A stretch of 64,000 nucleotides of DNA from a virus (IMGVR_UViG_3300028601_000019:68130-132129), one strand, 5' to 3'. Positions 3 to 46,247 are shown, counted from the stretch's first letter. Translations and numbers: made by a program. The notes: a model not told the origin generated them from the letters alone.

Positions 3-398
3 ACAATCTTAGGCAATAAAACCCTTTTTACAGATATTTCTAATTCAAACGCATATCATCTTCATACAAACGAAGATGATCCAAAGATTGTAGACAATAT
101 ATTTAACGATTTTTGAATAAAAAAATATAGTACTCAACAATGCATAGCATTTACTGTTAAGGGGCATGAGAAAAGAAAATGTGGAGAAATAATTGAAGTA
201 AACTGACCAAGTATATGGGCCGATGAGATATATAATAAGAATCTACAGGGTAAATATCTTATTAAAAGCATTACTCATAGTTTTGTTCCGCATAGCAGGC
301 CAGCCTTTTCTCAAAAAATGGTGTGTATAAAAAATGGATATGAAGAAAGCGATGTTAAAGAATTATTGGATTCTGTTAATAAAAATGTGTCGAATTAG
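3..398 (+). CDS. Baseplate hub / gp27-like protein, 3' part (code 4, 2 in-frame TGA)
   Basis: Frame open from the window edge to TAG 396-398 if TGA 114 and 204 are Trp. Ends with GHEKRKCGEIIEVNWP...GKYLIKSITHSF and lies directly before gp5. Confidence 0.6.
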
Positions 399-406
399 GA
401 GTTATT

Positions 407-2152
407 ATGATTAGAAATGATCCTGCTGAATTTCAGCCAAGTCCCGAAAAAATACATGGCATTTGAAGGGGTGTCATTGAGAATAATAAAGACCCAGAAA
501 AAAGAGGAAGATGTAGAATTAGAGTTTTCGGCATTCATACTGATATAAAAGAAAAATCCCAGTTTGAAGGCATTCCTACTGAAGAACTTCCCTGAGCAGA
601 ACCGGCCTACTCATTAATGGAGGGTGGTGTATCTGGATTTGGTTCTTGATGTGTTCCTGTTCAAGGAAGTCAAGTTTTCTTATTTTTTGAAAATGGTCAT
701 ATTTTAAAACCTCGATTTTTCGCGTCAATACCTGGCGTTCCAACAGACCCACAATTTGATGATGATGCTAAAACCGGAGCCCAAGATTATAAGGGCAGAA
801 TGAGAGAGCAGGCCAAAAAATTACATGATAGAATTCAAGCTCATTCAGATGATATTGAATTCCTTAATAGTAATGAGCTTGGATCACTTAGTAAAAGATG
901 AGAATCTGGTAATGCTGGACCATATGCCATTTCAAGTGGAGAAAATGATCCTGGGGGTGTGTCATATGGGTCTTATCAATTTGCTTCAAAAAGAGGAACT
1001 GTAGAACCTTTTGTAGCTACACTGCCCCCAGAAATTCAAGCAAATTTTGCTGGACTTACTCCAGGTACTCCTGAATATAACACAGCATGAAGAGAATCAG
1101 TTAATCAGATGGGGGCAGACAATTTCTATCAAGCTGAACATGCTTATGTAAAAGCTAATTATTATGATTTAGCTGCTAATAATATTAATAAATCTACCAG
1201 CATTAATGCTAATGAACGTAGCGCAGGTGTTCAAGACATGATTTGATCTATGAGTGTTCAACATGGTCCATCTGGTGCTAACAGAATTATGAAAAATGCT
1301 GGCGTTACTAATGATATGACAGATGAAGAAATTATTAATAGATGCTATAAAGAAAGATCTAATGTAGATAAATATTTTTCAAGTAGTCCTGCATCTACAA
1401 AAAATAACTTAACTCAAAGATTTCAAGCAGAACATAAAATGGCATTAGCTAAGGCCAATGTTGAAAATCCTCCAGCAGAGGAAGTTATTCCTCCAAACTT
1501 GGCCGCTGCTTCTGTGGATGATCTTGCTAAAGATACAGCTTTAACTGATTCAGAATTTAAACAATCATTTCAAGAGGGGTATGAAAAAGATACTTCTTCT
1601 GTTGGTGGGTTTGAAGACCCAGATGGTTCATATCCTACTGTTAAAAGACTTAATGAACCATCTGCGCATAGATTATTTAGAGAAGAGGGCACAGATACAA
1701 TTCTTGATATTAAAAAGGAAAATATTAAAAGGGGTGTAGACCTTGCTCAAAATAAAGGAACATGAAACGAACCAACCCCGGCCTATTCTCCAGAATATCC
1801 ACATAATACAGTAATTGCAACACACTCAGGAATTGTTATTGAAATTGATAGTACTCCGGACAAGCAAAGACTTCATATTTTTCATCCTTCAAATACATAT
1901 ATAGAAATAGATTATGAAGGAAACTTGGTTATTAGAAATTCAGGTAATAAATATGAAATAACAGAACAAACGAGTAACACTCTAATAGAAAGAGATAAAA
2001 ATGAAACCATTAACAATAATAAAACTTCATTTATAAAAGCAAATGAATATGTTCAGGTAGGTGTTAATAAGAAGGTTGTAATCGGTGGCAATTATGATGT
2101 TGAAGTTACAGGTGTTTGCAATTTAAAAGCTGCTACAATTAATTTAAATTAA
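407..2152 (+). CDS. 5: Baseplate central spike gp5-like: OB-fold + lysozyme-like (VgrG3-type) domain + beta-helix, 581 aa, code 4
   Basis: One frame joined through 7 TGA (464, 593, 647, 899, 1088, 1244, 1763). Motifs WRGVIENNKDPEKRGRCRIRVFG, IPTEELPWA, WNEP..YPHN..HSG, and terminal KAATINLN. Confidence 0.92.
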
Positions 2153-2162
2153 GGAATGGAAT

Positions 2163-2864
2163 ATGGCAACATTATCACCTTGTGAATCTTTAAATACCAA
2201 AATAGATTCCTTATTAATGGACTTTAATTTGTCTACATCAAATGTTTATTCTGCTGTTGGTACTTTAAATGATACTTTAGATACTATGAAATCACAAGCA
2301 GGAATAACAGATCTTGAAGATAAAATTAATTCTTCAAGAAATACAGCATCTTCCGAATTAGGAAATATTATAAACCCACCATATAATTTGGCCGGTAGTT
2401 GTTTAGACTCAATAAGAAGTTCTGTTTATGATGTTTTAAACAAAGCATCTGAATATTCATCCAATGCTTTTGGAAATATAGATGGAATTGCAAATGTATC
2501 GACTTTAATGAGTCAGTTAGGCAATGTTAAGTCATTGGTTAATGATCTCGGAATAGGAAATCTTTTACAAAAAATTGACCAAACACTGGGGTGTTTGGCT
2601 GATAATAATGATTGTATTCCAATAGATAAAATTGATACTGTGTTGGCTTCAATATCAAATACTTTAGACACTACAGGACTAGGTGATACTGGGATGTTCG
2701 ATGTTTCAAAAATACTTGATAATATACCAGATTTTAATTCTGTACTTAAACAAAATATTTTGGATTTAGATGTAGCATCAAATTTATTAGCAGATCAAAG
2801 TAAAGTTTCTATAGAATCCTCTTTAAAAACAGCATCTAAATATTATGATTCTTCTAAATGGTAG
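2163..2864 (+). CDS. Hypothetical virion protein, 233 aa
   Basis: Intact ORF between gp5 and gp25 with an upstream RBS (aaggaa). Confidence 0.75.
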   Translation: MATLSPCESLNTKIDSLLMDFNLSTSNVYSAVGTLNDTLDTMKSQAGITDLEDKINSSRNTASSELGNIINPPYNLAGSCLDSIRSSVYDVLNKASEYSSNAFGNIDGIANVSTLMSQLGNVKSLVNDLGIGNLLQKIDQTLGCLADNNDCIPIDKIDTVLASISNTLDTTGLGDTGMFDVSKILDNIPDFNSVLKQNILDLDVASNLLADQSKVSIESSLKTASKYYDSSKW

Positions 2865-2870
2865 GTAAAA

Positions 2871-3245
2871 ATGGCAATTTGAAAAGATTTTGATATAGAA
2901 ATGACAAAAAAGAATGATGGTGATATTCTTGAAATGACTGATGAAGATGCAGTTAAAAACTCATTAAGTAATATTTTTAGAACAATGAGAGGATCGCGGA
3001 GAATGGTCCCCCTTTTTGCAATAAATATATATAATTATTTGTTTGAACCTTTGGATGAAATAACTGCACTGGAAATAGGAAATGAAATTTTTACATCTAT
3101 AACAAATTGAGATTCTAGAATTGAATTATTAGATCTTCTTATAGCTCCTAATTATGATAACAATTCTTATGATATTTCAATACAATATAAAGTAAAAAAC
3201 TTTCTAAACATTCAAACATATACAAATAACTTATATAAATTATAG
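2871..3245 (+). CDS. 25: Baseplate wedge gp25-like, 124 aa, code 4
   Basis: AVKNSLSNIF..RGSRRMVP..LFEP and ITN-W-DSRI (canonical WEPRI position is TGA 3108). Confidence 0.9.
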
Positions 3246-3253
3246 GAAATATA

Positions 3254-5041
3254 ATGAACGAACTAAATCCAACATATCTGGAAGCAGATTTCAATTCACT
3301 TAAACAAAAGTTTATTTCAATCCTTCAAAATAATGACACTTTCAAAGACTATAATTTTGAAGGGTCAAATATTACAATGTTGATAGAGCTTTTGTCATAT
3401 CTATCAGAGCTTAATACATACTATGTTAATAAGCTTGCTAAAAATATGTTTTTAGATACTACTGATGTATATGAAACGGCGTCTTTAATGGCTAATCTTA
3501 GAGGCCACTATCCAAAAGGTTATATTGCTCCAAAAGTTAAATTAATTATTGATGTTACAGTTGATGAATTTTCTGTAAGTATTCCAAACCCCGGAGATCA
3601 ACTTTATATTCCTAAATATTTTCCATTTGAAACTGGTTTACAATATAATGATGAAGACATCTTTTATATTACACCCAAGGATTATACATTTTCAATTCCT
3701 GTAACAGCTACTGATACATATCAGATGGAAATTGAATTGAAACAAGGTGTTATTGAAACTCTTTCCTATACTGGGGAAGATGTAATTAACAATGTAATTT
3801 ATCTTCCTTTTTATTCTTTTGACCATGACACTGAGCCGTATGATGAAGAAAGCTCTATTGTTCTTTATGTTAATGGTGAACCATGAACACGGATAGAGAA
3901 TTTTATTGATGATTATTCTAATCTTGAAGATAATGATAAGGTATACAGATTTGAATATAACAAATTCCAGCAATACTGCATAAGATTCTCTACTGCTCAT
4001 TCTATTCCTAAAAGTTCTGACCAGATAAGAATCTTGGCTCTAAAAACTTTGGGCGATGGTGGTAATATTGGTGCATTTGTAATGAGTGAATTTGAAAACA
4101 TTCAAAATCTTCCTTCTTTAAATGGGAATACGTTTGAATTTACAGATAACTATTTCATTAGAAACATTACTAAAAACTATGGGGTTTGGGCATCAAGAAT
4201 TTCTATTGAAAATAGGGAAACTTCATACAGTTCATCAAGTCCAGAAACGATTTCTGAAATTGTTAATAGCTCTACAGGAGTTCTTCAAAGCCAATATAGA
4301 AATGTTACACGAACAGATTATAATAAGTTTTTAGAAACATATCCAGATGTAGTAAAAGCTAATTCATGAGGAGAGAGTGAGGTTAACCCTTATAACACTC
4401 AAGAATATAATAAAATCTATCTATCAGTTCTACCAAATAGATGGGATAGTTCTACTATTTTAGTAGACGAAGATAGTTGGGTTATAACTCCAGGGCTTAC
4501 TGCAAGTATTGATATTCCATCTGAATATACTTCATTATTTACACAAAAATTAAAAGAATATTTAGAACCTAAAAAATATTTAAATTCATTTGAAACCTTT
4601 GTTCTTCCAGAACTAGTATATTTTATTTTAAGAATAGGAATCAAAGTTAAACGACTATATAATTTTACTACAGTTAAAAATGATGTAGAAGCAAAACTAC
4701 AATATTATTTTGAAAACTATAATAGAAACTTTAATGAAGTTATAGATTTTAAAGATATTTTTAATTTTATAATGGATATAACTAATGTTTCTTCTACTAA
4801 TTCTTTTACAAATATTAAGGGTATTGAAAACTTGGTTATTAGAGATATAATGACATTTACTCCTTCTATTACAGCAGACAAAACAGTTATATATGAGCCA
4901 AATGAAATGAAATTATATCCACAATATACTCAAGAAATAGGATCTATTTCAAATGACAATCTTTTAAGACCTATTAAATTAGGTTTTAATCAATTTCCAA
5001 TATTGATTCCAGAAGGATGCCAATATGAGAACGAGGGTTAG
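3254..5041 (+). CDS. 6: Baseplate wedge gp6-like, 595 aa, code 4
   Basis: DFNSLKQ...DYNFEGSNITMLIELLSY, VNGEP-W, ANS-W-GESE (TGA 3884, 4367). Three track ORFs share one frame. Confidence 0.9.
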
Positions 5042-5043
5042 TA

Positions 5044-7788
5044 ATGTACGGTAAATTTTCAGAAATTCCTTATTTCTTAATAACAACATATTTTTCTTCA
5101 CTTGCATTTATAGATAAAGATGCAAGTGAATTACATTCTATGGTAATTGGGCCAAGAAGAACTATTGTTACTAAAGGTGCTCCTGTTCAAGAAATGTTTG
5201 TTAAAGATGAGCAATATGGGTATAGACAAGTTTGGTTAACTCCTGTTGCAACAAATAACAATGAATTTAGTGTTATAAAAAGTAATATAATTACAACACC
5301 ATCTACCACATTTACTGAAATATCTGGTGATTCATATTATTTTAAAATTTATGACATTGTGTCAGAATCAAATTTTATTGAAGATGGTGATGAAATTTAC
5401 ATTAGAAAGGATAGCCCTTTTTATTTTTGAATTCAAGATAAAGCAGAAGATCTATTTGAGGATTTATATTCTAAAGAATTTATTCTTAGAAATTTTATTA
5501 ATACAGATAAAGATTTTATCTATTTTGGAAAAATTTATAGTAAATCATACCAGAATGATCTTTTTATGATTGAATATTACAACATAAAAGATTTCATGGT
5601 TGATATGGTTCCTGTACACCAACAAACCCCAAAGTTCAAAGAGTTTTTAACTTTGTTTGGCGATATGATATTCAATGAGATATATTCTCTACAAAAAAAT
5701 ATTTTTTCAATTTTAGATCCTTTTAGTATTGATGACAGATATTTAAATCATCTTTCATCTTTATGTGGGATTTCGATTGATGATTTAGATTTAAATTTGA
5801 TAAACAAAAGAACTTTGGTTCATGAGTTGATAAATTTATTAAAATCTAAAGGATCATTTTTAGCATTAAGATATCTATGAAAGTTGGTCACAAACAACAC
5901 TTTAAATATTATAAATTTTTATGAAATTTGACATGATAAGACTATTGAAGGAAATGTTGCTCTTTTAGATAGGAAAGAGATTCCTTGATATGGTTATTAT
6001 AATGTTGAGAAAGAAGACATTGATGAATATATTACTCAATGGACAGATAAGTATCAAAGTTTTCCGTATCCAGAAAATTTAGATACATATACTTTAGCAA
6101 CACAATATAAAGTAGAGATTGATCTAACTAAAGAGCCTATTCATCAAAATGAAATTTTCAATGAAACTCTTGCAAACAGAATTTACGAATATTGGGAAAT
6201 TTATAGACCTATTAATAGGGTAGCAAACTATAATGTGTTTGTAAGCCCTATTACTGACTTAACACTAAGAAATATAAGTCTGTATAATACAGAGAAAGAG
6301 GCATATCTTCTTTCTAAGTCATATTTGCAAAATATTTCAGAACCCAACACATCTATTAGAGTTTTTAGAGTTACTATTGAAGATGGTTTTGAATATATTA
6401 TAAATCATAACTTGAATAGCAAATATGTTCTTATTCAACTATATTCATTTGATCTTAAAATGGTAATTCCTGAGCATGTAGAATATATTGATAATAACAA
6501 TCTTAAGATTAAATTGAGGGGGGCACAAACAGTATTCGCTCTTTTAAGAAGACCAAAATTTAATGCTGTTCGTCCATGAGGAACAGAAGATTCTGGAATG
6601 GATACTATGTTTTATGTATCCGACTTCGTAGAAAATCAATACTTTATAATGCCAGATACATTTCAGATTATAGATGAAGTTGAGTATGTTATTGATCCAA
6701 CTAACGAAATGGTTGCTTCATTGTCAAAATATTCATCCGTTCATTTACAAACTAATGTAAGTGATACATGGAATGTTGGCCACAGTTTAATTGGAAATTT
6801 CTTTGTTTCTGTTTATGATACAAGCAATAAGAAAATTATTCCAAAATCAATTTATATTGTGGGTCCAAATCAGGTTTCTATTGAATTTGAAGAACCATCA
6901 ACAGGATATGCTGTATTAACAAATTCTGATGATACGTTAACATTCTTTTCTATGTCCCCAGTTACAGAAATGGAATTTGAACATGGACTAGATTCTGAAT
7001 TATTGAATGTTCAAGTATATGATCTTTCAAATAATGTTGTTTTTCCAAAAAATATAATTTATTTAAATTCAAATAACATAAGAGTTGAGTTTGACGATCC
7101 AGAAGAAGTATTTGTTGTAGTTAAGGTTGCAGATAATAACCCATCTAAATATAAATGAACTATAACACATAACTTAAATAGAAGAGAAGTTTTGACACAG
7201 TTTTCTAATGATGATGGTGTTCAACTTGTTCCTGTTGGAGTAAATTTAGCAGATATCAACGAAGTTAAGACAACCAATAGTGGTGGTGTTGCACTCATGA
7301 CAAATTATGATTATCTTCATAATCAACCAACATCAAGTACTGAATGGGTTGTAGAGCACAATTTTGGTCATATTGGTGCATTGGTAAATACATATGACTT
7401 TGAGAACAATAAGTTATATCCAAAAGAAATAAGATTAGTTGATGATACAAAACTTATTATTTCTTTTGAAGATGCTAAATCTGGATATGCTGTTGCTGTG
7501 TCAATTGGTAGTGTATACTTTAGTAAGATTATTAAAATAACAAAAGTGCGATTTTCTAATAGTGATAGATCCCAAACTATAACAAAAGATATTACAGAAT
7601 TCTGAGACAATGATGATTATATGTTCTTCAGATTAGACTTACCTAAAGAAGTTGAATTGAGTATAAATAGAATTGAACTAATGACAATAGAAGAGGAAGT
7701 AATGTTTGAAACAAATTGCTCTACTATTTTTAAATCTAAGAATTTTTCATTAAGTTCACTCTACAGAATTTTTAAAGGAGTTTTATAA
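5044..7788 (+). CDS. Large baseplate wedge/structural protein with repeated H-N/G-L/F beta modules, 914 aa, code 4
   Basis: Five track ORFs in one frame joined through 7 TGA. It has a gp7/P2-gpI-like segment (ILDPFSIDDRYLNHL...KSKGS) and repeats YIINHNLNSK, WNVGHSL, FEHGLDS, WTITHNL, WVVEHNFG. Confidence 0.75.
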
Positions 7789-8688
7789 ATGAGATACCAT
7801 TTTTGACAGTTTTTAATAAACCAAGAGGGTCAACCAATTAATGATGCTGATATTTCAGTATATGCGGCCGGAACTACCACACCTGTTGTAGTTTATTTGG
7901 GTGAATTGTCTTCTGAAACTGCTAATGTAGCACCACAAGTTAAAACAAATTCCAATGGGTTTTTTGAGTTTTGAATAGGTGATGAAGAAGAAGCAATTGG
8001 ATATACAAGAGGAACTAAATTTAAGATTTCTTGAAATAGAACAGGAATTGCATCTGGAACGATTGATAACATTGAGGTTTTTCAAACTACGGAGGGTGTA
8101 GATGAAACAGATGCCGATTCTACATTTAAAAATAAATTGATAAGTAATGCCTTGGCTTATCAATTTGATACTCATTCTAAACATGATGTTCTTGATGATG
8201 GGTATCCAATTCACGGACTTATGATGGTGGATACAAATTCAACAGAAAATGTTTTTAATAAGGTAATAAGTAACAAATTAGCTAATGAATGGGAAATTCA
8301 TAAAAATTATGAATTTGATTCATTTTCTCCATCTGTGTTAGATAATTCTGCTCATAACCTTCAACCAATAAATTATAATTCTACAGATTCTAAATTTAAT
8401 AAATTAATGGCAGATAATATATTATATGACCTTAAAGCCTCTATAGATCTTTTAGGTGCATATACAGAAACTATCGAAGTTACTGGATGAGTATTGAATG
8501 GTGGAAGTGGAAATTATGAATATAATATTATTCATAATTTAGATTGGGATTTTCCTGCTATTGATTGTTGAGACATAGATTCAAGAATGGTCTATGCCCC
8601 AACAAATATTTATTCTGAAGATGCTAATATAATAAAAATTGAAAATCAAACCCCTCAACGATTAAAAGTAGGAATTTCAAGGAGATAA
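7789..8688 (+). CDS. Virion structural protein, 299 aa, code 4
   Basis: ATG abuts the previous TAA. Open through 5 TGA. Contains a C-terminal IIHNLDW module. Confidence 0.7.
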
Positions 8689-8689
8689 T

Positions 8690-9565
8690 ATGGAATTTTA
8701 TGGAATTGAAATGAAAGGACCACTGTATTTGGAGATTTTTGATATAAAACCAGAATTCCAAAATGAAGATTCTGGTAGATTAATATATGTTACATCAGAA
8801 GAAACTTTATATTATGGCGGCAAAACTATGTGATTAATTCCTGGAGAAAAACTTGTCGCCACACTACAACAAGTTTTGGATGGGGTACTTGATAATAAGT
8901 TTATATCACCCCTTAAATTAAATCAGATTAAAGCATTAAACACAGATATTAATGAAGGAATAGATAATGTAAAATATGTAACCCCTGCTGGGCTAAGGTC
9001 TTTAAAGGCTTCTATAGAGGAATCTTTTGAAGGAATAGATAATGTAAAATATGTAACCCCTGCTGGGCTAAAAAATTATACAGATAACAATCCAGGAATT
9101 TTACCTGGAACTATTATTTATTATGCAAATAATACTCCACCAAGTGGATATTTAAAAGCAAATGGTGCTGCCATTTCTAGGTCTACATATTCAAATTTAT
9201 TTGATGTTATAGGTACTACATTTGGAGTAGGGGATGGGACCACAACATTTAATCTTCCTGATCATCGTGGTGAGTTTGTTAGAGGATGGTCAGATGATAG
9301 AGTGGATTTAGATAGTGGAAGAGTTTTTGGATCATTACAAGAGGATGCTCTTAAAAAAATCACAGGAACATTGTGGGGTTATACTGGGTTTGATGGGGTC
9401 TATGCAGATGGGGCCTTTAGATTTGTGTATTCAAGATCTTCTGGGGGTCAAAGTGGTATTTCTTTTAAACATGGCACATTAACATTTGATAGTTCAAGAG
9501 TTGTTCCAGAATCAGATGAAACTAGACCACATAATATTGCTCTTTTAGCATGTATTAAATATTAA
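8690..9565 (+). CDS. Tail fibre with phage tail collar domain, 291 aa, code 4
   Basis: PGTIIYYA...GYLKANGAAISRSTYSNLFDVIGTTFGVGDGTTTFNLPDHRGEFVRG. The N-terminal anchor is joined through TGA 8831. Confidence 0.88.
8953..9071 (+). repeat. Exact 44-bp direct repeat (75-bp period) in the tail fibre gene
   Basis: tgaaggaatagataatgtaaaatatgtaacccctgctgggctaa at 8953-8996 and 9028-9071, encoding EGIDNVKYVTPAGL twice. Confidence 0.95.
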
Positions 9566-9590
9566 ATTTGTTTCAAATTAAATAATTAAG

Positions 9591-10145
9591 ATGTTTATAT
9601 TTAAATATGATAAATTAACAAAAATATATATTGGAAAAGAGGAGGCAGATGAATCACCATTGGAACATGGGGTATATCTCCTTCCTCAGTTTGCAACCTT
9701 TTTAGAACCTCCAGAATGTGATAATGAATATGAAATTGTTGTGTGAAATGATGATTCTTGAAAGATTGTACAGTTGGAAGAAGTTTATAGTTTGAAAGAT
9801 AAAAAAAGAGAATGATTTCAAATTCTTTTAAACATATATAATTTTAAACTTTCGAATATCAAATGACATGAGTTTTCTTTTAACTACAACAATGTTTTAA
9901 AATCGATAGTTGAGAATATGTTCTTAAAGGTTGATGAAATATTTTTGGAATCGAATAATCGAGGTCTTATAAAGATAAATTCTTACACTTTTAATTCAAT
10001 AGTAGAAGAAGTAATGCAATATAAGAGAAAATTAGATGAATGAAGATTCTCTTTAGAGAAAAATATAAATAGTTATAAGACGATAAAAGAATTAAATGAT
10101 TTTTATTTAAGATTAGAAGAACACCAAAACTCTGATGAGATTTAA
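9591..10145 (+). CDS. Tail fibre assembly protein (Tfa-like), 184 aa, code 4; absent from the ORF track
   Basis: YIGKEEADESPLEHGVYLLPQFATFLEPP...VV-W-NDDS-W, with 5 TGA. Confidence 0.8.
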
Positions 10146-10227
10146 CAAGCACATCTTTCAAATTTCATCACTAATCTTAAATATCATAAACAAAAAAGCT
10201 TATTTAAAGAAATAGAGAGGATCAAAC

Positions 10228-10560
10228 ATGAAATTTCATGGAATTGATATGCGTGGTAAATTCGTTGTTCAGCGATTATCAACTATTCCTACATTTGTGT
10301 CAACAGATAAGGGAAGATTGATTTATGTTGAAGATGAAGACGAATTTTACTTTGGTGGAACTTCCGAATGAAAAAAGGGCGGCGGTGGTTCTGGGGCTGT
10401 TGGTGGTGGGGATGATTTACTTTTTTATGAAAATGATCAAACAGCCACAACAGACTATACTATTACAGCAGGAAAAAATGCAATGACTACTGGACCAGTA
10501 TTGATTGATGATGGTGTAAACGTAACAATTCCTGACGGTTCACGTTGGGTTATTCTATAA
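10228..10560 (+). CDS. Tail fibre adaptor, 110 aa (anchor domain + FYEN..TITAGKNAMTTGP module), code 4
   Basis: N-terminus is paralogous to that of 8690. One TGA at 10369, followed by a Gly-rich linker. Confidence 0.75.
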
Positions 10561-32630: not shown

Positions 32631-32644
32631 CATAACTTTCTTTG

Positions 32645-32673
32645 TTTACAAGCTAAATTTTCTAAGTTAAATA
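32645..32673 (+). promoter_or_regulatory. Promoter-like TTTACA-N17-TAAATA for the helicase operon
   Basis: Exact spacing, 41 nt before ATG 32715. Confidence 0.55.
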
Positions 32674-32714
32674 GTAATAATGAATTTGAATATCAACGGA
32701 GGAGATCCCTATTA

Positions 32715-34043: not shown

Positions 34044-34406
34044 CCGTTACACATTCTTTTGAAAATTTATGTAGGTATTCCGGGTTCAAAAGAATTTTAT
34101 TTAAAAGAAGAATCTTTTAGATATTTCTATGATTTCACCATTCCAAGATTAAAAATTTGTATAGAATATAATGGTGAACATGTTCATCCAAACCCAGAAT
34201 GATTAGAAGAAGATATTGAAAGATGAAATAAATGACGACATTTTTATTCACATAGCTCTTCTGATGTTATATATAAAAAAGATAAAAATAAAATTGATGA
34301 AATTATTAACTGCGGCTATAAAACACTAATAATATGATTTGAGACTAATATAGACAAAAATATTTATCTATGTAAAAAATTTATATTAGATAATCTAAAC
34401 AAATAA
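34044..34406 (+). mobile_element. Vsr-like (PD-(D/E)xK) homing endonuclease between the intein halves, code 4 (4 TGA); absent from the ORF track
   Basis: YFYDFTIPRLKICIEYNGEHVH...W...K.....GYKTLII-W. No ATG; the candidate start is TTG 34059. Confidence 0.8.
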
Positions 34407-34422
34407 AAAGGAGACTTTATTA

Positions 34423-34827
34423 ATGGGTAAATTTGTGCAGATTTCAGAAATTGAAGATATAGGTGAATGTGAAACTATAGATATAACAACATCTGGAAAT
34501 AATTTGTTTTTTGCAAATGGAATTTTAACACACAATTCCGGGATAACATCACAGATAGGTGAAATTACTTTTGCAATGTTATCGGAGTCTATTGGAACTG
34601 CTGCAACCGCAGATTTCATTATGGTTCTTGGTAATGATAGTGATTCACTTGTATATCAAAATGAAATTTTTTATAAAATACTTAAGAACAGACTTGGCGG
34701 CAGAGTAGGAGAAATTTCCAAATTTTATCAAGATGATAAGTCTTTAAAAATGTATGATTCTGTTGAATTAGATAATTGGATTTCAGATGCATCTATTTCT
34801 GGTGCATGTGTAAATATGGCAAATTAA
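34423..34827 (+). CDS. 41: Split intein IntC (38 aa) + helicase gp41 C-extein (96 aa)
   Basis: Own RBS (aaggag). TIDITTSGNNLFFANGILTHN/S, then SESIGTAATADF and KILKNRLGG. Confidence 0.92.
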   Translation: MGKFVQISEIEDIGECETIDITTSGNNLFFANGILTHNSGITSQIGEITFAMLSESIGTAATADFIMVLGNDSDSLVYQNEIFYKILKNRLGGRVGEISKFYQDDKSLKMYDSVELDNWISDASISGACVNMAN

Positions 34828-37582: not shown

Positions 37583-38587
37583 ATGTTAGATTTACAATTT
37601 GTTTATATTTTCATATTAGAAAATTATCCTAATGTAAGTGTGTCTCGAAATGGGACACACTTCAATTTTAGGTGTCCTTTTTGTGGTGATTCAGAAAAAT
37701 CGTCAAGAAAAAAGCGTTTTCATGTTCAATATGTTTCTGATGAAACTATTTTTTTCAACTGTTTCAACTGTCCTGCTTCTGGAAATTTTTATGATTTGTT
37801 CGCTTTTAATCAAGGAATTTCTTCTGAAGAAGCATATAAAAAACTTAGAAAATTTAATGAGGAAGGAATCAAGAAAAGCCTTACTTCTAAAAATGAATTT
37901 CATAAAAAAGAAATAGATTATTCCAAATATGAAAATTTTAATAATTTTTTAAAGAAGGATTGCTTGTCTATAGATTCTATTCCTTCTTCATATTATCAGA
38001 CTCAGCTTTTAGAATATTTGAAAATGTTTAAAGAGTCTAGAAAAATTTCTTCTGATCTTTTTGTATGTCATTCTGGAACTTTTAATAAAAGAATAATCAT
38101 ACCAATTTTTGAAAATGATATATGTATATTCTTTCAGGGAAGAAGAATTTTAGAATCTCAATACCCAAAATATTTAAACCCAACCGTAGAAAAAGAAAAC
38201 ATTATTCTTAATAAGGGAAATTTTGATAAGGAAAAGTTCATTATTATTACTGAAGGTATTTTAGACGCTGATTCTATTGGAAAACAAGGAACAACGTGTC
38301 TTGGTGCAAATATTAGTGAATCTTTCCTTACTGAACTATTTAAACACACAAACTGTGGTGTAATTCTTGCGTTAGATAATGATAAAACAGGGCAAGAACA
38401 GCTTTATAATATTTTTAAAAGAAGCGAATATAATAAAAAACTAAAATACTTTACTCTTAATAAAGAAAAAGATTTAAATGAGTTCAAAATCAATAATCCT
38501 CTTATAGATATCTATAAATACGTTATAGATAATGCTTTAAGTTATCTAGAAGCATATACACAATTAAGCATAAGGGGAAATTTTTAA
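37583..38587 (+). CDS. 61: DNA primase (gp61-like)
   Basis: Zn finger CPFCGDS...CFNC, RIIIP, FQGR, KYLN, ITEGILDA, ALDND. Confidence 0.92.
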   Translation: MLDLQFVYIFILENYPNVSVSRNGTHFNFRCPFCGDSEKSSRKKRFHVQYVSDETIFFNCFNCPASGNFYDLFAFNQGISSEEAYKKLRKFNEEGIKKSLTSKNEFHKKEIDYSKYENFNNFLKKDCLSIDSIPSSYYQTQLLEYLKMFKESRKISSDLFVCHSGTFNKRIIIPIFENDICIFFQGRRILESQYPKYLNPTVEKENIILNKGNFDKEKFIIITEGILDADSIGKQGTTCLGANISESFLTELFKHTNCGVILALDNDKTGQEQLYNIFKRSEYNKKLKYFTLNKEKDLNEFKINNPLIDIYKYVIDNALSYLEAYTQLSIRGNF

Positions 38588-39054
38588 TGATAATTTCTAA
38601 ATATAAAGAAGATTATATAGAGGTAGATGAGCACTGACTTCGAATTAATGAGGATGTAATTCAGAAAAAAATTCATCTTGTAAAATTAGATTTTAAATAT
38701 CCAACAGAAGAAAAATTAGATCAGTTACTATATATATTACCCAAAACAAATAGATTTATTATAGAAAACAATGTTCGTTTTTACAATGACTATTTCAAGA
38801 AAACAAAGAAAAAATTCTATGTAGAAAATTCATTTAAAGATCAAAAAAGGTTTATTTCCTTTTTAAGAAAGAATAATAAAATCCTTTTAGATTTTACTAA
38901 AATAGATTCATTAAGTTTAAAACATATTTTGTTAGAATTAAATTGAGAAGATCTATTAAATAATATTGAAATCTTAAAAATATCTTTTGTTGATTTTGAG
39001 CTATATAGATCTCGATTTTCTCAATGAGATGGCAATATTATTATAATGGAATAA
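38587..39054 (+). CDS. Hypothetical protein, 155 aa, code 4 (3 TGA); absent from the track
   Basis: TAATG-coupled to primase; open only with TGA = Trp. Confidence 0.65.
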
Positions 39055-39056
39055 AC

Positions 39057-39851
39057 ATGGAAAAAATAGCCTTTGGACCATATTTAGGAGATTTTAGATG
39101 TGAAGTCTTTTATTTTTTACCTTATATTAGATGAGTTAAAGATGTTTTGTCGCCCAAAGAAATTTATATCTCTTCTCATTTTAATAGAAAATTTTTATAT
39201 CATGGGTTAGCAACAGAATTTTTTCCAATAAATCCTATGATAAGCGCAGATGAAATTTCTCAAAAGAATCATTTTAACAAAAATATATATAAAACTCACT
39301 ATAATGTATTAGAAAAAGATTTTAAATCTAATTTTGACGAAGACAATATACAATTTTATAATTTTGAATATAATAAGTATAAAATGCCGTGTTCTATGTT
39401 TCAACTTAAATTTGATAGGCTGAATTTTGATATCAGATATAGAATGGAGGATAAGATTTTATTTATTCCGGATAGAAATGAAAAAGAATCTTATCTGGGT
39501 GGTGTATTATCTTATTTGACAACTATTTTGGGTAATAAATTGGTTGTTGCAGGAGATTCCAAAACTCATTTAAATGATAAAAATGTTCTATTAAATAGCA
39601 TTAATTATCATGATATAGTATATAAAGAGTTAGTAAATTATATATCATCCTGTAAAGCAGTAATTTGCCCTGCTTCTGTTTGAAGCGGTATTGCAAATTT
39701 ACAAGAAAGACCTATATTATCATGAGGAAATAGAATTTCAGAATATAAAGATGGTAAATACTATTTTAATAATAAAAAAGGAAAATTTTACCCTAAACTT
39801 GAACTAAACAATCTTATAAAGTGTATAGATAAATTTTTGGAGGAATTGTAA
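39057..39851 (+). CDS. GT-B/GT9-like glycosyltransferase, 264 aa, code 4 (3 TGA)
   Basis: FGPYLGDFRCE...PYIR-W and CKAVICPASV-W-SGIANLQERPILS-W-G. Confidence 0.55.
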
Positions 39852-39854
39852 AAC

Positions 39855-40139
39855 ATGTTAAAAATCCATGATGCGTATTGCCTTTGCGGCTATGAAGATG
39901 AAATTTTTTGCGAAGATGATAATTTTGGTTTGTGTCCAATTTGTGGAAAACAACTACTAAAGGCCTTTTCTACCTTCAATTTTGAATTGAAGTATAATCC
40001 AAAGAAAGATAAAGTAGCATGGGCATCTTCTAATTATGAAGAATCTCAATATTGAAAAGCAGTAAAAGAAGAAAAATTTACTACTGGGAAAACACCTTCT
40101 CATCCTGGATCGTGTGATCATCCCGTTACAAGGAAGTAG
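39855..40139 (+). CDS. FmdB-like Zn-ribbon protein, 94 aa, code 4
   Basis: C.CGY.DE...CPICG and ESQY-W-K. Confidence 0.6.
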
Positions 40140-40145
40140 AAAACT

Positions 40146-41324
40146 ATGAAGAGAAATATTTTATTACTTGGATCTAATGGTTATATAGGATGGGCCCTAC
40201 TTCAAAGGCTCATTAAGAAGGGTTACAATATTTTTTGTGTTGACAATAGATTTAGAGAAAAAGCTGTTTCGTTAGAAATGGGTTCATGTTCTGCAATTAA
40301 AACATTAACAATTTCTCAAAAATATGTGTGGCTAGAAAACTTTAAGAATGTGTCTTGGTATGAATTTGATTATGTTAAAAATGAATCTGGATTGAAACAA
40401 TTGTTTAAAAAATTTAAATTTGATACAATAATCAATCTTGCTCATCAACCATCCGGTCCATATAGCCAAAAATCTTGTGAAAACTCCAAGTTTACAATCA
40501 AAAACAACATTCTTGGGACCAACAATGTTCTCTGGCTAATGAAGCAATATTGTCCAAATGCTCACTATATAACTATTGGATCAACAGGAGAATATAGCCA
40601 CAATTTAGATATTCCTATTGAAGAGGGATACTTTACTATGGAAGGGGCTACTGATAAGTCCATATTTCCTCGCAGAACCAATTCAATTTATCATGCAAGT
40701 AAAATTTCAAGCACATATATAACAGACACTCTTGCAAGAATGTGGAGTCTCAAAACTACAGATATAATGCAAGCTGTTGTTTTTGGTTCATATACGGATG
40801 AAATTGATGAAAGCAAACTTTATACGCGTTTAGATACTGATGCTGCTTTTGGAACCGTATGTAATAAGTTTATGGTTCAAGCTATCTTGGGTATGGATTT
40901 AACAGTTTATGGTATGGGTGATCATAAGAGAGGATTTATTGCTCTCAATGATTCTATTCAGGCTCTGATGATTGCTATTGAAAATGATTCTGAAAATGAT
41001 TTTTATGAAGATTTTTCGCCAAGAGTTTGGAATCAACTTTCTTTTTGGATTTCAATGAATGACCTTGCATATACTGTTAAAAGAATAGCTATGAAAGAAT
41101 TTAACATTAATGTTAATGTTGAACATATAGAAAATCCTAGGCACGAAATTACAGAGGCCCCAAAGCACTATTCATACAAAACAGATATTCTACAATCTTA
41201 TGGATATGAACCAACAAGAACTTTAGAACAAGAACTTGCTTATACTATGAGAATTCTATATAATAATAAAACATATTTAAAAGGTCTCGAAAATAATTTT
41301 AAAAATCATATAAGGTTTAAGTAA
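40146..41324 (+). CDS. sqdB: UDP-sulfoquinovose synthase-like extended SDR (SqdB/SQD1/Agl3 family)
   Basis: GSNGYIGW, VDN, Q.S.PYS, NN..GT.N, GSTGEY, IPIEEGY, YHASK, TRLD.D..FGT, LTVYG.G...RGFI, NPR.E. Confidence 0.82.
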   Translation: MKRNILLLGSNGYIGWALLQRLIKKGYNIFCVDNRFREKAVSLEMGSCSAIKTLTISQKYVWLENFKNVSWYEFDYVKNESGLKQLFKKFKFDTIINLAHQPSGPYSQKSCENSKFTIKNNILGTNNVLWLMKQYCPNAHYITIGSTGEYSHNLDIPIEEGYFTMEGATDKSIFPRRTNSIYHASKISSTYITDTLARMWSLKTTDIMQAVVFGSYTDEIDESKLYTRLDTDAAFGTVCNKFMVQAILGMDLTVYGMGDHKRGFIALNDSIQALMIAIENDSENDFYEDFSPRVWNQLSFWISMNDLAYTVKRIAMKEFNINVNVEHIENPRHEITEAPKHYSYKTDILQSYGYEPTRTLEQELAYTMRILYNNKTYLKGLENNFKNHIRFK

Positions 41325-42589
41325 TGATTTATTGTTTTAACAGTGATAATATTCTAATATCAAAACATGAAACATATGATAATACTGCATTTAATATGTT
41401 AAAGTTTTGTTTTAATGATAAGCGAATTTCATCTTTTATTATTACAGAACATAATAATGACATTAAAGATATAGATTTTGTTTATATTTCTATTAAAAAA
41501 TCTTCTGGGATATTTTTTGATACAGAATATCTTTTTATTAGATCATGCGACTTTGAAAGATTGTATAGATTAAAGTTTTCATCATATAAAGAATTCTTGA
41601 TTTATATTAAAAAACACCAAGAATTTACTTGAAAGAAAAATGATTTTAAATTAGAAGAAGATAAAAAGTATATAAATTTTTATGGAATAACTAATACACT
41701 CGGCATGCCTAATAGGGGCCCTATTATACAAACACAAAATAAAATATATTATTTTAAAAGAGATATATTAGATTTTAAAATTGGTATTCAAAATAAACAT
41801 GAATACTGTCATTGAAATCATATTTTAAACCCCGATTGCAAACGCATAAATTCATCTAATGTAAGTGTGGGACCGAATATTATGATGTTTGATAATAAAA
41901 ATGATTGATGAAAACATCTCAATATTGTTACTGATTCTAATTGAATGAAAGAATACTTTATAAATACATTTAAAATAAAAGAATCTCAATTAAGTGTAAT
42001 ACCGATTTATGTTACTGAGGATTTTTACGAAGCAGAAATCAATTCAAACAAAAATATTGTAGGTATTGTTGGATATCCAAGACATGATGATATTAAAAAT
42101 ATGTTGTCTTTAGTGGAGATATGTAAAAGATTTCCAAATATGAAATTTGAATTGCTTTCAAGCAGAAGCAAAAATCAGTTCCCCAATGATATTCAAAACA
42201 TTAGAAATCTTCAATTTTTTAATGTTCCTCATAAAGATACAATAGAAATTATGAAAAGATGAGGAATGTATATTGGATTAAGTAAAAGGGAACGTGGGCC
42301 AGCAGTATTACAAGAACTAAAAGTTTTAGGTATTCCTACAATTTGCCCAAATCATACTGGGTATAAAGAATTTAAACCATTTATTGCGTTAGATATTGCC
42401 CCACTTCTTGAACATAAAACAAAAGACTTAGATTTATATTCTGATGCAATAGAATATGTTCATAATAATCATGAACAATGTATAAATAAAACACAAGAAG
42501 ATAGAATAAAATTTTGAAATGAAGAAAAATCAACAAAAATTGTTTCTAAAAAATGGGAAGACTTTTTTAGAAAATGCTTAGGAGTATAA
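41324..42589 (+). CDS. GT4-like glycosyltransferase, 421 aa, code 4 (7 TGA, including tandem TGA-TGA)
   Basis: Three track ORFs in one frame. VGPNIM, VTDSN-W-MK, ERGPAVLQELKVLGIPTI (ExxxxxxxE motif). Confidence 0.8.
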
Positions 42590-42591
42590 CA

Positions 42592-43221
42592 ATGAAACTA
42601 GAAAATAACATTTGACATAATGCTTATTCAAATGATCCAGAAAAATATGAATTTTTTAAATCTCAATTGCAGAAACTTAAAGAATCTAGAGAATGGATTT
42701 TAGAAACTCTTTTATCTTTAAAGAAGGTCAAAACTGTTTTAGAAATTGCTACAGGACCTGGACTTGATCTAGAGTATTTACATGATAAATTTGAAGATCT
42801 CCCCTTTAAATATACTGGTGTTGATTATACACCCAAATTTATTGAAATACTAACAGATAAATATCCTCAACATACTTTTATAGAAGCTGATGCAATGGAT
42901 TTGCCATTTGAAGATAATTCATTTGATGTTGTTTATACTAGACACTCTTTAGAACATATGAATGATCCGCATAAAGAGCTCGATGAAATTTTTAGGCTTG
43001 CCAAAAAATATGTTATTATTGGTTGGTTTAGATTGGTAGATTCCCCAACTTCCTTACAAATTAAATCAAGCATTAATGGTGAATTCCCTATGAATGATTT
43101 GAACAGAGAAGAATTTACAGAAAGAGTTTTGGACTGGGGAACTATTGAAGATACATTTACAATCAAACATAATGAATGCTGACTAGTTAAAAAACATACT
43201 AAGAAAGGGAAGAAGAAGTAA
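42592..43221 (+). CDS. Class I SAM-dependent methyltransferase, 209 aa, code 4 (2 TGA)
   Basis: VLEIATGPG, GVDYT, ADAMDLPFEDNSFDVVY.RH.LEH. Confidence 0.88.
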
Positions 43222-44024
43222 TGAAACTTGAATCTGTTCTTGTTACTGGGTCTGATGGATATATTGGAGAAAATCTAGTTAGGTTTTTAGAATCTAAAGG
43301 TGTTTTTAAAATTTATAAAATTGATAAGAAAAGCGGAGTAAGATTAGAGGATGTTGATGTTATTCTAAGGTGTGATTTGATTGTTCATCTTGCTGCTGAA
43401 TCTGGAATTCCTAAATGTGAAGAAGATCCTAAAGAAGCTATTCTAAGTAACATCTCAGCATCCTTCAATATTTTAAATTTAGCATATAAGAATAATATCC
43501 CTGTTATCCTGGCGTCCTCTCAGGCAGCTAAGAACCCTTCTAGTTCTCTTTATGCTAGTACCAAATATGCTATGGAAATAGAAGCTCTTAGATTAAATGA
43601 TAAAGGCGCAAATAATAAAATTCTAAGATTCTCTAATGTTTTTGGTGGTTACAAATATATTGAAAAGAAAAATTCTGTTTTAGCTTGTTTCGCAAAGGCG
43701 TTTTTAAATGGTGAAGAACTCAAGATTCATGGCTCTGGAAAACAAGAAAGAGATTTTATTCATGTTGATGATTTATGTAAGGTTATCTTTCAAATTGGTT
43801 CTCAGATTGATAAGATTAAGGAATCTATTATAGATGTGGGAACTGGTTATCCAATTTCTATTATAAGTATTGTTGATTATCTCAGACTGGATTATGAATA
43901 TAGTAATGAGCGTGATGGTGGAGAAACGTGTAACTTTGCTGACACTTCATTTTTAGAAAAGTATGGATTTGATGTTCCATCTATAAGTAAGCTCTATGAA
44001 TTTTTAAATACACTTCAAAAATAG
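43221..44024 (+). CDS. NAD-dependent nucleotide-sugar epimerase/dehydratase
   Basis: VTGSDGYIG, VHLAA, YASTK, RFSNVFG, RDFIHVDD. Confidence 0.88.
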   Translation: MKLESVLVTGSDGYIGENLVRFLESKGVFKIYKIDKKSGVRLEDVDVILRCDLIVHLAAESGIPKCEEDPKEAILSNISASFNILNLAYKNNIPVILASSQAAKNPSSSLYASTKYAMEIEALRLNDKGANNKILRFSNVFGGYKYIEKKNSVLACFAKAFLNGEELKIHGSGKQERDFIHVDDLCKVIFQIGSQIDKIKESIIDVGTGYPISIISIVDYLRLDYEYSNERDGGETCNFADTSFLEKYGFDVPSISKLYEFLNTLQK

Positions 44025-44047
44025 AAAGGGGTATTTGACCCCTTTCT
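44023..44047. terminator. Hairpin between convergent genes
   Basis: agaaagggg-tatttga-cccctttct. Confidence 0.7.
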
Positions 44048-44700
44048 TATAGAAAATCCCGTAATACTCTTTCCCTTTTAACATTATAATCTTCGGCGCT
44101 TCTTGTACTTATAGAATCTTTTGATGCATATGCAGTAAAAAATCCTTCACATGATTTCCCTATATATCCTCTCTTCAAACATTTTAAAAGAAAGGCCCAA
44201 TCTAACAACCTCACATATTGATCATCTGTCACTAATCCAACGTCATTTATTACTTTACTCTTGAACATTGAATTAGATGAAATATAATTTCCTTTCTTAA
44301 GTTTTTCTTTATTAAATTCAATAGCAGGAAAAGAGTTATTTATTGCTCCTTTATATTCAAAAGAACAATAGGTATATGCTATATTGTTATTTTTAAAATC
44401 TTCTTTTTTTAAAGAATAATGCATCTTTACTAATGTACCATCTTTCCATTCTGTATCATTATCAATTTTGATTACATATGGTGCAAGTAATTTTAATTCT
44501 TTTAATGTATTAAATCCTTCGGAAAAATTCCCCATAACATTCATGTTGGATTCAATAGAAATCCAGTTAAATGGAATTTCACAATCTTTCACTGTTCTTA
44601 GAGTTTCATTAGAAATTTTATCCCCACACTTCAGTGGAGTAACAATGCTGAAGTGTGGGGATTTTTCAAGTTGAATAAAGTTGATAATTGTATTATTCAT
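44047..44700 (-). CDS. GT2-like glycosyltransferase
   Basis: SIVTPL, KIDND (DxD), YISSNSMFK, LLDWAFLL. Confidence 0.7.
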   Translation of the reverse strand: MNNTIINFIQLEKSPHFSIVTPLKCGDKISNETLRTVKDCEIPFNWISIESNMNVMGNFSEGFNTLKELKLLAPYVIKIDNDTEWKDGTLVKMHYSLKKEDFKNNNIAYTYCSFEYKGAINNSFPAIEFNKEKLKKGNYISSNSMFKSKVINDVGLVTDDQYVRLLDWAFLLKCLKRGYIGKSCEGFFTAYASKDSISTRSAEDYNVKRERVLRDFL

Positions 44701-45109
44701 CACTACTATAAATTTGATCTGCAATTAGCTGCAAACGTTCATATAGTTCAATTTCATGGGGTTCAATTTCATTAACAGAAAGTAGAGAAAATTTCTTGAT
44801 TTTGATTTTATCATCGTAATCCACAGTCTTTAGAAGAAGCTTAATAAGTCCATCTTTATCCTCTGCACTAATGTTATCCATAACAGTTTGGTCAAAGATT
44901 AGAACAATGTCATATCCATTTTCATGTCTTTCATCGATAGATAAATAAGACATGAAAGGATTCAATGCCTTAACTTCCCCAATGACATATTCGCCATTGG
45001 ACTTCTTTTTACGATTACGAGCACAAATAAGTCAGTTTAGATTCATTAGATGTGGATATTCCTTGGACAAGATCTCATCAAAAATTTCACAGTTGTACGA
45101 TTCAAACAT
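44693..45109 (-). CDS. Hypothetical protein, 138 aa, code 4
   Basis: The track ORF extends through TGA 45032-45034 to ATG 45109, which has RBS aaggag. Confidence 0.7.
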
Positions 45110-45140
45110 TTTTAATTCTCCTTATGAGGTATTTATTTTT

Positions 45141-46247
45141 ATGAATTTATTAAGTATTATTGGAAAGATAATTTTACATATAATCCTCCTACCAGTTAAA
45201 ATTTTAGTATCTGTTCTTTTTAACTTTTTGTATTTACCTTCAGTTAAATTCGATTCAAATATATATTACACTACTCCTACAGTAGATGTAAACAAAAGAG
45301 CCGAAGAAATAAAAAATTCTTTGAACATAAATGCATATATTAATGATGGCGATGGTGCAAAATTTTTGGGTCTTGCATACACATCGTGTAAAGACAAAAG
45401 ACTTTGAGATGAAGTATCAACTCTTCTGTATGGACTTTCATATATACTTCGGGTTCCTTGGTCAGAAAACTACGATCAAAAAGTTTTTTCTGGTGATATG
45501 TGAGCAGGAATGTTTCCTGCTATATTGACAGCTTTAGAAAATAATCATATGTCAAATTGACATAAAAAGCAAGTCTTAAGCATTATAGAAAACACCATTT
45601 TTAATGGAAAATCTTTTGTTTTTAAGCATCCCATTGATGATGATCAAGATCGTGGTTTTATTTTCCCCTTTTGGTCAATGGGATCTAATTTTTTTGATGT
45701 AATATCAATGTGTTTAATAGCTGAAAAGTTAAATGGTGGAGTTAAATATAAAGTCTTAAGATACATTTTTACCATTATAGGATTTCCATTGATGTTCTTT
45801 TTAAGACAAGGGATATTTATTAAAGATGTTTATGCATTAAATTTTTTCACGGAACACTCTGCGCTTGTTAAAGCGTATTATGTATATAAGTTTTGTGGAT
45901 ATAAATTTTTGAAACGCCCAATTGTAAGGCATTGTGAAGATAATCCTTGATTTTTAGATTCTGCTAAATTTTTACAAGATTTAACAGGAAATTCTTCATA
46001 TGATATGTTTTTAAATGATTATCTCAACACAACCAACTTAGAAAACATTGAAAACATTCCATGGACATTTAAACATACATATTTTTCATTAAAAGGATTT
46101 GAAAAGAAAGATACTTATTCACTTTATTCTTTACCATATAGATTTAGAATGGGATCTAAATATTTAGATGATGATAAGCCTATGGAACCAAAAGGGGAAA
46201 AGAAATTACAATCAACTGCCGATTTCATTCATTTTTATAATTGATAA
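45141..46247 (+). CDS. Unknown membrane-associated protein, about 368 aa, code 4 (4 internal TGA + TGA-TAA end)
   Basis: Three track ORFs share one frame. RBS gaggt; hydrophobic N-terminus and a central hydrophobic segment. Confidence 0.7.

Follow-up and report, generated by a model that had tools for sequence, protein, structure and literature searches.

On the comparative sequence evidence, UGA is translated as tryptophan in an uncultured T4-like phage recovered from a landfill metagenome, and we consider it likely that this phage enters a host using the standard code and changes the meaning of the codon in the course of infection. The DNA examined, referred to here as the window, is a 64-kilobase (kb) stretch (G000:C1:68130-132129) of a single 164,754-base-pair IMG/VR virus contig (G000) with a guanine-plus-cytosine (GC) content of 31%; coordinates are those of the window unless they are marked G000 or belong to a whole-contig search. 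A preliminary description of positions 3 to 46247 had read in-frame TGA as tryptophan (genetic code 4) on the strength of example sites in several genes, each of which we found in place.

Gene structure provides the first line of support. In a greedy, non-overlapping set of open reading frames (ORFs) spanning the whole contig, code 4 yields a coding density of 0.92 and a mean gene length of 201 amino acids (aa), as compared with 0.81 and 146 aa under code 11, 0.85 and 148 aa with TAG as sense, and 0.88 and 166 aa with TAA as sense, so that re-calling genes under alternative tables, the check originally proposed, gives both the highest density and the longest genes with code 4. This set contains 272 TGA and 428 TGG codons, with TGA making up approximately 39% of all tryptophan codons. 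TGA is used by some 40% of the genes, including those for baseplate, fibres, terminase, sheath, glycosylation enzymes, homing endonucleases and TnpB, and a few replication or nucleotide-metabolism genes also bear one TGA each. Between positions 3 and 46247, 28 of 65 ORFs carry the codon (83 TGA vs. 98 TGG), and the 32 in-frame TGA initially counted in 1-10371 compare with 33 in our recount of the plus-strand genes in 1-10560. The window features that use TGA are as follows.

3 to 398, plus strand: 3′ end of a baseplate/tail protein gene (whole gene G000 67298-68527, 409 aa; PHROG phrog_350 tail protein, E 1e-30), with 2 TGA in the window and 5 in the whole gene.
407 to 2152, plus strand: gp5-like baseplate hub/spike with a VgrG3-like lysozyme-type domain (PF21277, PF06714, PF04717, PF22178), with 7 TGA, including those at 593 (IPTEELP-W-A) and 1763 (GT-W-NEP), and 0 TGG.
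2871 to 3245, plus strand: gp25 baseplate wedge protein (PF04965), with 2 TGA, at 2880 and 3108 (ITN-W-DSRI).
3254 to 5041, plus strand: gp6-like baseplate wedge protein (PF21379), with 2 TGA, at 3884 and 4367 (ANS-W-GE), and 3 TGG.
5017 to 7788, plus strand: baseplate/fibre gene, with 8 TGA.
7789 to 8688, plus strand: baseplate/fibre gene, with 5 TGA.
8690 to 9565, plus strand: baseplate/fibre gene with a tail collar domain, with 1 TGA.
9591 to 10145, plus strand: fibre-assembly-like (Tfa-like) ORF, with 5 TGA, including VV-W-NDDS-W at 9744 and 9759.
16948 to 18292, minus strand: PAAR spike tip (PF05488; 1 TGA, at 17182-17184, GHGC-W-P) and glycosyltransferase (phrog_7162; 6 TGA, 2 TGG).
25083 to 25574, minus strand: dUTPase (PF00692), with one TGA, at codon 30, which is kept as TGA in the recoded relative G001.
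32715 to 34043, plus strand: DnaB/gp41-type helicase (PF03796), with one TGA, at codon 146 (33150).
34059 to 34406, plus strand: small Vsr-like ORF ending GYKTLII-W-FE, with 4 TGA, that of GYKTLII-W at about 34335, and 0 TGG.
38587 to 44024, plus strand: run of sugar-modification genes in which TGA-rich and TGA-free genes alternate.
38587 to 39054 (3 TGA), 39024 to 39851 (3 TGA), 41324 to 42589 (7 TGA, 1 TGG) and 42574 to 43221 (methyltransferase, 2 TGA), plus strand: TGA-rich members of this run.
40146 to 41324 (0 TGA, 7 TGG) and 43221 to 44024, plus strand: TGA-free members of this run.
44952 to 46247, plus strand: 431-aa ORF with no family assigned, with 5 TGA and 3 TGG; the last TGA-using gene ahead of the early block.

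Reading through these codons restores full-length genes, as the preliminary description had held: full-length homologues exist and Pfam domains cross TGA positions, with the PF21277 match in gp5 covering residues 158-342 and thereby three TGA. The table-11 ORF of the dUTPase would lose approximately 30 N-terminal residues, because the TGA falls at codon 30 and the alignment to PDB structures runs from residue 50 (chain residue 32) onward. For the dCMP deaminase, whose Pfam domain lies downstream of the TGA, translation may instead begin at a start codon after it.

The identity of the inserted residue follows from comparison with relatives, where TGA was masked as X before alignment so as not to presuppose the answer. 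Five genomes or loci serve here: L001 and L002 are close relatives with 72-96% protein identity; G001 is a recoded relative of 133 kb with approximately 75-80% nucleotide identity to the contig; G005 is a 171-kb standard-code relative (GC 35%); and L011 is a standard-code relative with a GC content of 62%, in which two genes end in TGA, no sense TGA occurs and the gp5 homologue (P0010) translates under table 11. Opposite window TGA codons, L001 and L002 present TGG at 14 sites, TGA at 11 and no other codon, and in gp6, where their homologues are 72-79% identical, TGA and TGG interchange. The recoded G001 shows 67 TGA and 45 TGG at masked positions. Among the standard-code genomes, L011 places TGG at 18 of 42 masked sites, followed by TAC (5), TTT (2) and glycine codons (2), and genome-wide comparison with G005 gives TGG as the largest class (45). 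Helicase codon 146 reads TGG in G001 as well as in G005, and the TGA of the G001 gene stands at codon 99 instead.

Wider protein families tell a similar, if less uniform, story. All seven TGA columns of gp5 hold tryptophan or another aromatic residue in 13 full-length homologues, and five TGA columns of the large terminase hold tryptophan in 69-114 of 120 homologues. The earlier notion that these positions are family-conserved tryptophans stands for the nearer relatives and not for every wider family, since structures of T4 gp25 have tyrosine at both TGA columns and PAAR structures have phenylalanine at theirs. Counting TGG alone, tryptophan accounts for 0.60% of late-block residues; with TGA included its share is 1.48%, close to the 1.61% of the TGA-free early block. 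The base following TGA differs mildly from that following TGG (A in 45% vs. 33%; chi-square p = 0.01), and the excess of C after TGA expected for leaky stops was not seen. TGA also lies nearer the 5′ end of genes than TGG in G000 (p = 0.0007); leaving out the initial 10% of every ORF makes this tendency weaker, it is absent in G001, and we regard it as probably an artefact of start calling.

The same codons could in principle specify glycine (code 25, with a Gracilibacteria or Absconditabacteria host) or selenocysteine, or mark pseudogenes or sequencing errors, and it is true that code 25 hosts are low in GC and found in anoxic waste habitats and that coding density is blind to the difference between codes 4 and 25. 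We attach next to no probability to these readings: code 25 is rejected by the two glycine codons among 42 sites in L011, a background level, and by the place of glycine outside the listed classes in G005; cysteine (TGC) stands opposite a masked TGA once at most; TGG is by far the commonest partner and interchanges with TGA among close relatives; full-length homologues and domains run across the sites; and the same TGA sites recur in independent assemblies. Tryptophan, as originally proposed, is thus the assignment that the masked comparison upholds.

The use of TGA is sharply partitioned along the genome. The early block (G000 114397-133010) comprises 33 consecutive genes with 0 in-frame TGA and 75 TGG, and yet it contains 436 off-frame TGA, whereas the baseplate/late block (G000 53121-80921) carries 75 TGA and 51 TGG, so that TGA accounts for 60% of its tryptophan codons (Fisher p = 4.6e-21 for TGA/TGG in the early vs. 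late block). No early-block gene ends in TGA either, because a code-4 ORF would run past a TGA stop and the in-frame count is zero; nor is this a composition effect, since G005 ends 54 of its 277 genes (19%) in TGA. Early and late timing are deduced throughout from strand, gene content and promoter motifs. The window features that avoid TGA, including those of the early block and its RNA-repair-type gene set (46746-55353, minus strand), are as follows.

10571 to 11707, plus strand: late-type tail fibre gene (PHROG tail fibre families) in which TGA is unused, with 0 TGA and 6 TGG.
19045 to 22223, minus strand: topoisomerase II subunits (phrog_551, phrog_543), TGA-free, with 6 TGG.
26789 to 28681, minus strand: NAD-dependent DNA ligase (phrog_3869), TGA-free.
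46268 to 64000, minus strand: start of the TGA-free early block, which continues to G000 133010, with 0 in-frame TGA and TAA or TAG as the only stops; it encodes an RNA ligase, an AAA_33 kinase and two metallophosphoesterases.
46746 to 47432 and 49306 to 49905, minus strand: calcineurin-like phosphoesterases.
51223 to 51669, minus strand: AAA_33 kinase with a weak KTI12/PSTK-like match.
54262 to 55353, minus strand: RNA ligase.

The T4-type late-promoter motif TATAAATA occurs 44 times, 18 of them within 80 nucleotides (nt) upstream of a start codon, and the genes so preceded include those for the major capsid protein, the gp24-like vertex protein, the sheath and the tube. In the extended minus-strand early region the motif precedes three genes, all of which contain TGA, and one of these is immediately followed downstream by a fourth gene that uses the codon; on the plus strand the motif is found 74 nt upstream of the sugar-modification gene at 38587. 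Early promoters are of the TTTACA/TATAAT type, and AGGAG ribosome-binding sites are frequent (strong Shine-Dalgarno).

From this partition the preferred explanation takes its shape. Because the early block is free of TGA despite pressure towards adenine and thymine (AT) and despite TGA usage in late genes, the code would be switched during infection, and because the TGA-bearing genes of the early region mostly stand behind late promoters, the host would not read TGA as tryptophan at the start. UGA would accordingly act as a terminator, or at least not as a tryptophan codon, when infection begins; the phage would then change its meaning as infection proceeds, and TGA would serve as a timing lock on the later genes. 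We therefore infer a host that uses the standard code, or at any rate does not read UGA as tryptophan when infection starts.

Several observations weigh against this scheme. The partition is not a clean early/late split, given that one TGA must be read as tryptophan in the replicative helicase and likewise one in the dUTPase, and some late genes dispense with TGA altogether, namely those for the major capsid protein (4 TGG), the gp24-like protein (3), the tube (5) and one tail fibre (6). Abundant virion proteins avoid TGA in this way in G000 and in relatives 89% identical to it; L009 and L016 depart from the pattern, which is thus no rule of the clade. Where it does hold, an incomplete switch might account for the absence of TGA from the most abundant virion proteins (major capsid, tube). 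In L009 (GC 24%) the sheath gene has 11 TGA and 1 TGG, and in L016 the major capsid protein gene has 4 TGA and 0 TGG, a usage that looks like that of a native code 4.

A host that natively reads UGA as tryptophan, whether a Mollicute or an undescribed walled code-4 bacterium, would require neither a switch nor any phage-encoded machinery, and it would accommodate the low GC content, the nearly exclusive use of TGA in L009 and L016 even in sheath and major capsid protein, the TGA codons in a helicase and a dUTPase that are likely needed ahead of late transcription, and an essentially complete genome devoid of suppressor tRNA, release factor 1 (RF1) or tryptophanyl-tRNA synthetase (TrpRS). It is nonetheless quite improbable in our assessment, as AT pressure should have converted the early genes as well, the TGA genes of the early region sit mostly behind late promoters, and the peptidoglycan-hydrolase-type domain of gp5 speaks against a wall-less host. 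TGA as the main tryptophan codon in all gene classes, the Mollicutes-type pattern, is not what the contig presents, with 33 early genes lacking it. We know of no 166-kb T4-like phages of Mollicutes.

As regards the wall of the host, one of the two peptidoglycan hydrolase domains announced in the preliminary description was confirmed: the gp5 domain (PF21277) is present, and scanning of 50 window proteins turned up no second one. Given this domain, a wall-less host appears unlikely. Pointers to a standard-code host are indirect, namely the TGA-free early genes, the Shine-Dalgarno and sigma-70-type signals and the wall-degrading domain of gp5. The TTTACA/TATAAT-type promoters and Shine-Dalgarno sites argue against a Bacteroidota host, and scans of bacterial genome contigs with an SDR/epimerase-like sugar-modification enzyme and with TnpB returned no match and indicated no host.

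How a standard-code host might be reprogrammed depends on what the genome does and does not encode, and hence on its completeness. CheckV puts the contig at 69%. The relative G001 is, however, collinear across both contig ends, and its bridge of approximately 1.5 kb consists of a 671-aa NrdD ORF, the first 230 codons of which are held at the contig start, together with the start of the next gene; because this bridge is so short and nearly all nrdD coding sequence, the genome is essentially complete, with approximately 99% present, a full size of roughly 166 kb and some 1.4 kb unassembled. The contig break thus lies inside nrdD, the anaerobic ribonucleotide reductase gene (G000:C1:1-692 and 163538-164754), which in L109 is itself split into two NRDD parts by an inserted gene of 428 aa.

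Within this nearly closed genome, the search for dedicated machinery called for in the preliminary description came up empty, and this too counts against a phage-driven switch. ARAGORN calls seven tRNAs on the whole contig (Arg-CCU, Met, Pro, Thr, Tyr, Leu-CAA and a degenerate Ala-UGC), none of them with a UCA or CCA anticodon; Rfam at E<=1 adds no further tRNA to the whole contig; an ad hoc scan for hairpins between genes detects none with a YU-UCA-R loop; a six-frame search gives no match to PF00472 (RF-1) or PF00579 (TrpRS, class Ib synthetase); and the ten tRNAs of the recoded G001 include none with UCA. The standard-code G005 encodes a tRNA-Trp(CCA). Pfam scans of 20 TGA-free early proteins of the window reveal nothing resembling release factors or tRNA modification enzymes, many of these proteins being without a known family.

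A number of tRNA-like candidates were considered and set aside. Relaxed ARAGORN runs (-ps80, mitochondrial mode) propose tRNAs with tca at 123819, 30186 and 138879, which are low-scoring, lie inside coding sequence and are taken as false positives. Two identical cloverleaf-like elements of 66-70 nt (G000 29983-30052 and 33718-33787) have side loops of 3 nt and a central loop reading CCUUGAA (UUCAAGG on the other strand), and are no UCA decoder; near them lies a 300-nt tandem duplication with a period of 317 nt (G000 32267-32883). The class II Leu(CAA) tRNA, at 33 bits, retains a conserved loop of the normal 7 nt, around which the anticodon stems of G000 and G001 differ by compensatory changes, and is likewise not a UCA tRNA; in the Ala(UGC)-like gene (155927-155999) the acceptor stem is broken.

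A phage suppressor tRNA might still have been missed, either in the unassembled stretch of about 1.4 kb or for being too unusual for ARAGORN and Rfam, which would be a variant of the code switch rather than its opposite. Borges et al. suspect undetected non-canonical suppressor tRNAs in other phages (bioRxiv 10.1101/2021.08.26.457843), the contig does hold odd tRNA-like genes, and the CheckV estimate leaves room for missing sequence; we consider such an oversight unlikely all the same, as the bridge between the contig ends is nearly all nrdD in G001, none of the tRNAs there has UCA, the odd genes show CAA, UGC or UUG at the anticodon position, and no anticodon-arm-like UCA hairpin occurs between genes.

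Returning to a switch during infection, we see two routes as the likeliest. In one, an early phage protein would disable or out-compete the host's release factor 2 (RF2), such that the host's own tRNA-Trp(CCA) would read UGA; in the other, decoding would fall to an RNA too unusual for tRNA finders. The more specific proposal that an unannotated, TGA-free early product reprograms the host, by inactivating RF2 or altering the anticodon of tRNA-Trp, with no phage tRNA, release factor or synthetase involved, is one we put forward only tentatively. The original suggestion that the phage may impose the code itself thus gains indirect support from the TGA-free early block, the late promoters ahead of TGA genes and the gp5 peptidoglycan-hydrolase-like domain and loses from the missing suppressor tRNA, RF1 and TrpRS; a phage-imposed code is, on balance, likely.

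The relatives further arrange themselves in a graded series. L011 (GC 62%) has no sense TGA and G005 (GC 35%) uses the standard code; in G000 and G001 (GC 31%) TGA represents 27-39% of tryptophan codons; and L009 (GC 24%) shows the near-exclusive usage described above for its sheath, as does L016 for its major capsid protein. Such a gradient fits an AT-driven drift from TGG to TGA, which would have set in after UGA ceased to be a stop. A search of IMG/VR for relatives of L009 gave distant matches only.

The contig otherwise has the gene content of a T4-like myovirus (Straboviridae-type core), with all tested hallmark genes present. Its virion genes comprise two copies of the gp23-family capsid gene (PF07068), one of them a gp24 paralogue, a contractile sheath (PF04984), a baseplate set of gp5, gp25 and gp6 (PF06714, PF04965, PF21379), the PAAR spike tip and tail-collar fibres, along with a large terminase, and its replication set includes topoisomerase II (phrog_551, phrog_543), NAD-dependent ligase, primase, helicase and a gp44-type clamp loader (PF21328). 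Atlas neighbours of the NAD-dependent DNA ligase are mostly viral. Sequencing-run searches recover near word-for-word copies of window DNA in two landfill metagenome runs and small shares of it in activated-sludge, wastewater and soil runs, with no RNA run listed among the matches; megablast of window positions 1-10400 against GenBank phages gave no match.

Further observations concern individual loci. The helicase gene is followed by the TGA-rich Vsr-like ORF, which matches no Pfam family at E<=0.001, and then by an ORF of 134 aa (span 32715-34827). In the sugar-modification run, the opposite tryptophan codon usage of adjoining genes suggests that they may have been acquired at different times or from different sources. 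Three TnpB-type (Cas12f1-like_TNB) genes at G000:C1 5048-6409, 36846-38027 and 161639-162820 contain 3, 1 and 1 in-frame TGA, respectively, which means that these mobile elements use the altered code of the phage. The 663-aa large terminase (G000:C1:6448-8439, minus strand) has an insert of about 50 residues (approximately 85-133) that is missing in most of its 120 homologues, and some relatives' terminases bear intein or LAGLIDADG domains (PF14890, PF14528). Downstream of the terminase and a 143-aa gene, and approximately 64 kb before the window, lies a conserved ORF-free stretch of about 650 nt (G000:C1:3950-4640, minus strand; L003:3950-4640:-) in which each of the six frames is interrupted by stops. 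Comparison with G001 and L109 shows long invariant blocks in it and, in a long stem, a compensatory change; Rfam gives no match to this stretch at E<=1, and by nhmmer it is found only in TGA-recoded close relatives and is absent from the standard-code G005.

Recoding of the stop codon TGA as tryptophan is already described in phages, and the T4-like environmental case presented here is an extension of it. Phages of standard-code hosts that read TGA as tryptophan are known as the 'Agate' and 'Jade' clades (Borges et al., bioRxiv 10.1101/2021.08.26.457843; Nat Microbiol 2022), and in code-4 phages a TGA suppressor tRNA is detectable in only 35%, recoding is concentrated in late genes and relatives are low in GC, with a temporal code-switch model put forward for code-4 and code-15 gut phages (bioRxiv 10.1101/2021.08.26.457843). 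The present phage resembles these clades in having TGA at tryptophan positions with a structural/late concentration and standard-compatible early or replication genes, a low GC content, no use of TGA as a stop, close standard-code relatives and no detectable suppressor tRNA, which is often absent there as well. It departs from them in its T4-like backbone, with gp23/gp24, gp5/gp6/gp25, a gp44-type clamp loader and TATAAATA late promoters; in its landfill/wastewater rather than animal-gut setting; in the lack of suppressor tRNA, RF1 and TrpRS despite an essentially complete genome; and in major capsid and tube proteins that are still TGA-free.

Other known systems share some of these features. 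The crAss-like and Lak phages, in which blocks of the genome are recoded at TAG or TGA (Yutin et al. 2021, PMC7886860; Mgcod, bioRxiv 10.1101/2022.06.29.495998), likewise divide the genome into standard-compatible and recoded parts for which a temporal switch is proposed, but they mostly reassign TAG to glutamine, usually encode their own suppressor tRNA and infect Bacteroidota hosts. Phages infecting Mycoplasma and Spiroplasma use the native code 4 of their hosts and have in common with the present one the reading of TGA as tryptophan and a low GC content; they need no TGA-free gene class, whereas the phage described here has a strict TGA-free early block, a hydrolase-type domain in its spike, a far larger genome and a T4-like organization. 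With T4 and T4-like myoviruses it shares the core virion and replication genes, the late-promoter motif, the early/late strand split, an RNA repair gene set and homing endonucleases; TGA in T4 is solely a stop, and the phage here never needs it as one.

What is new in the present analysis is the masked-codon test against two standard-code relatives, the closure of the genome by way of G001, the negative outcome, in two recoded genomes, of the search for code-change machinery, the association of TGA genes within the early region with late-promoter motifs, and the graded series of relatives. In practical terms, the default table 11 breaks approximately 40% of the genes, including those for baseplate, terminase and glycosylation, and whoever uses the sequence further will need the right table. 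Published surveys leave some two thirds of code-4 phages with no explanation for their missing machinery, and to these cases we add a nearly closed genome and a second recoded relative in neither of which known code-change genes were found, the check in G001 being for tRNA(UCA).

With this case the recoding of TGA to tryptophan reaches a T4-like backbone and a habitat outside the gut, that of anoxic waste. The graded stages of TGG-to-TGA conversion, which track GC content from 62% through 35% and 31% to 24%, are useful for studying how a stop codon is captured. If an early product indeed reprograms the host, this would be a previously undescribed kind of code switch, based on a protein or an RNA. 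With its well-understood early, middle and late programmes and its compact TGA-free early set, a T4-like genome offers a practical place to seek the missing factor.

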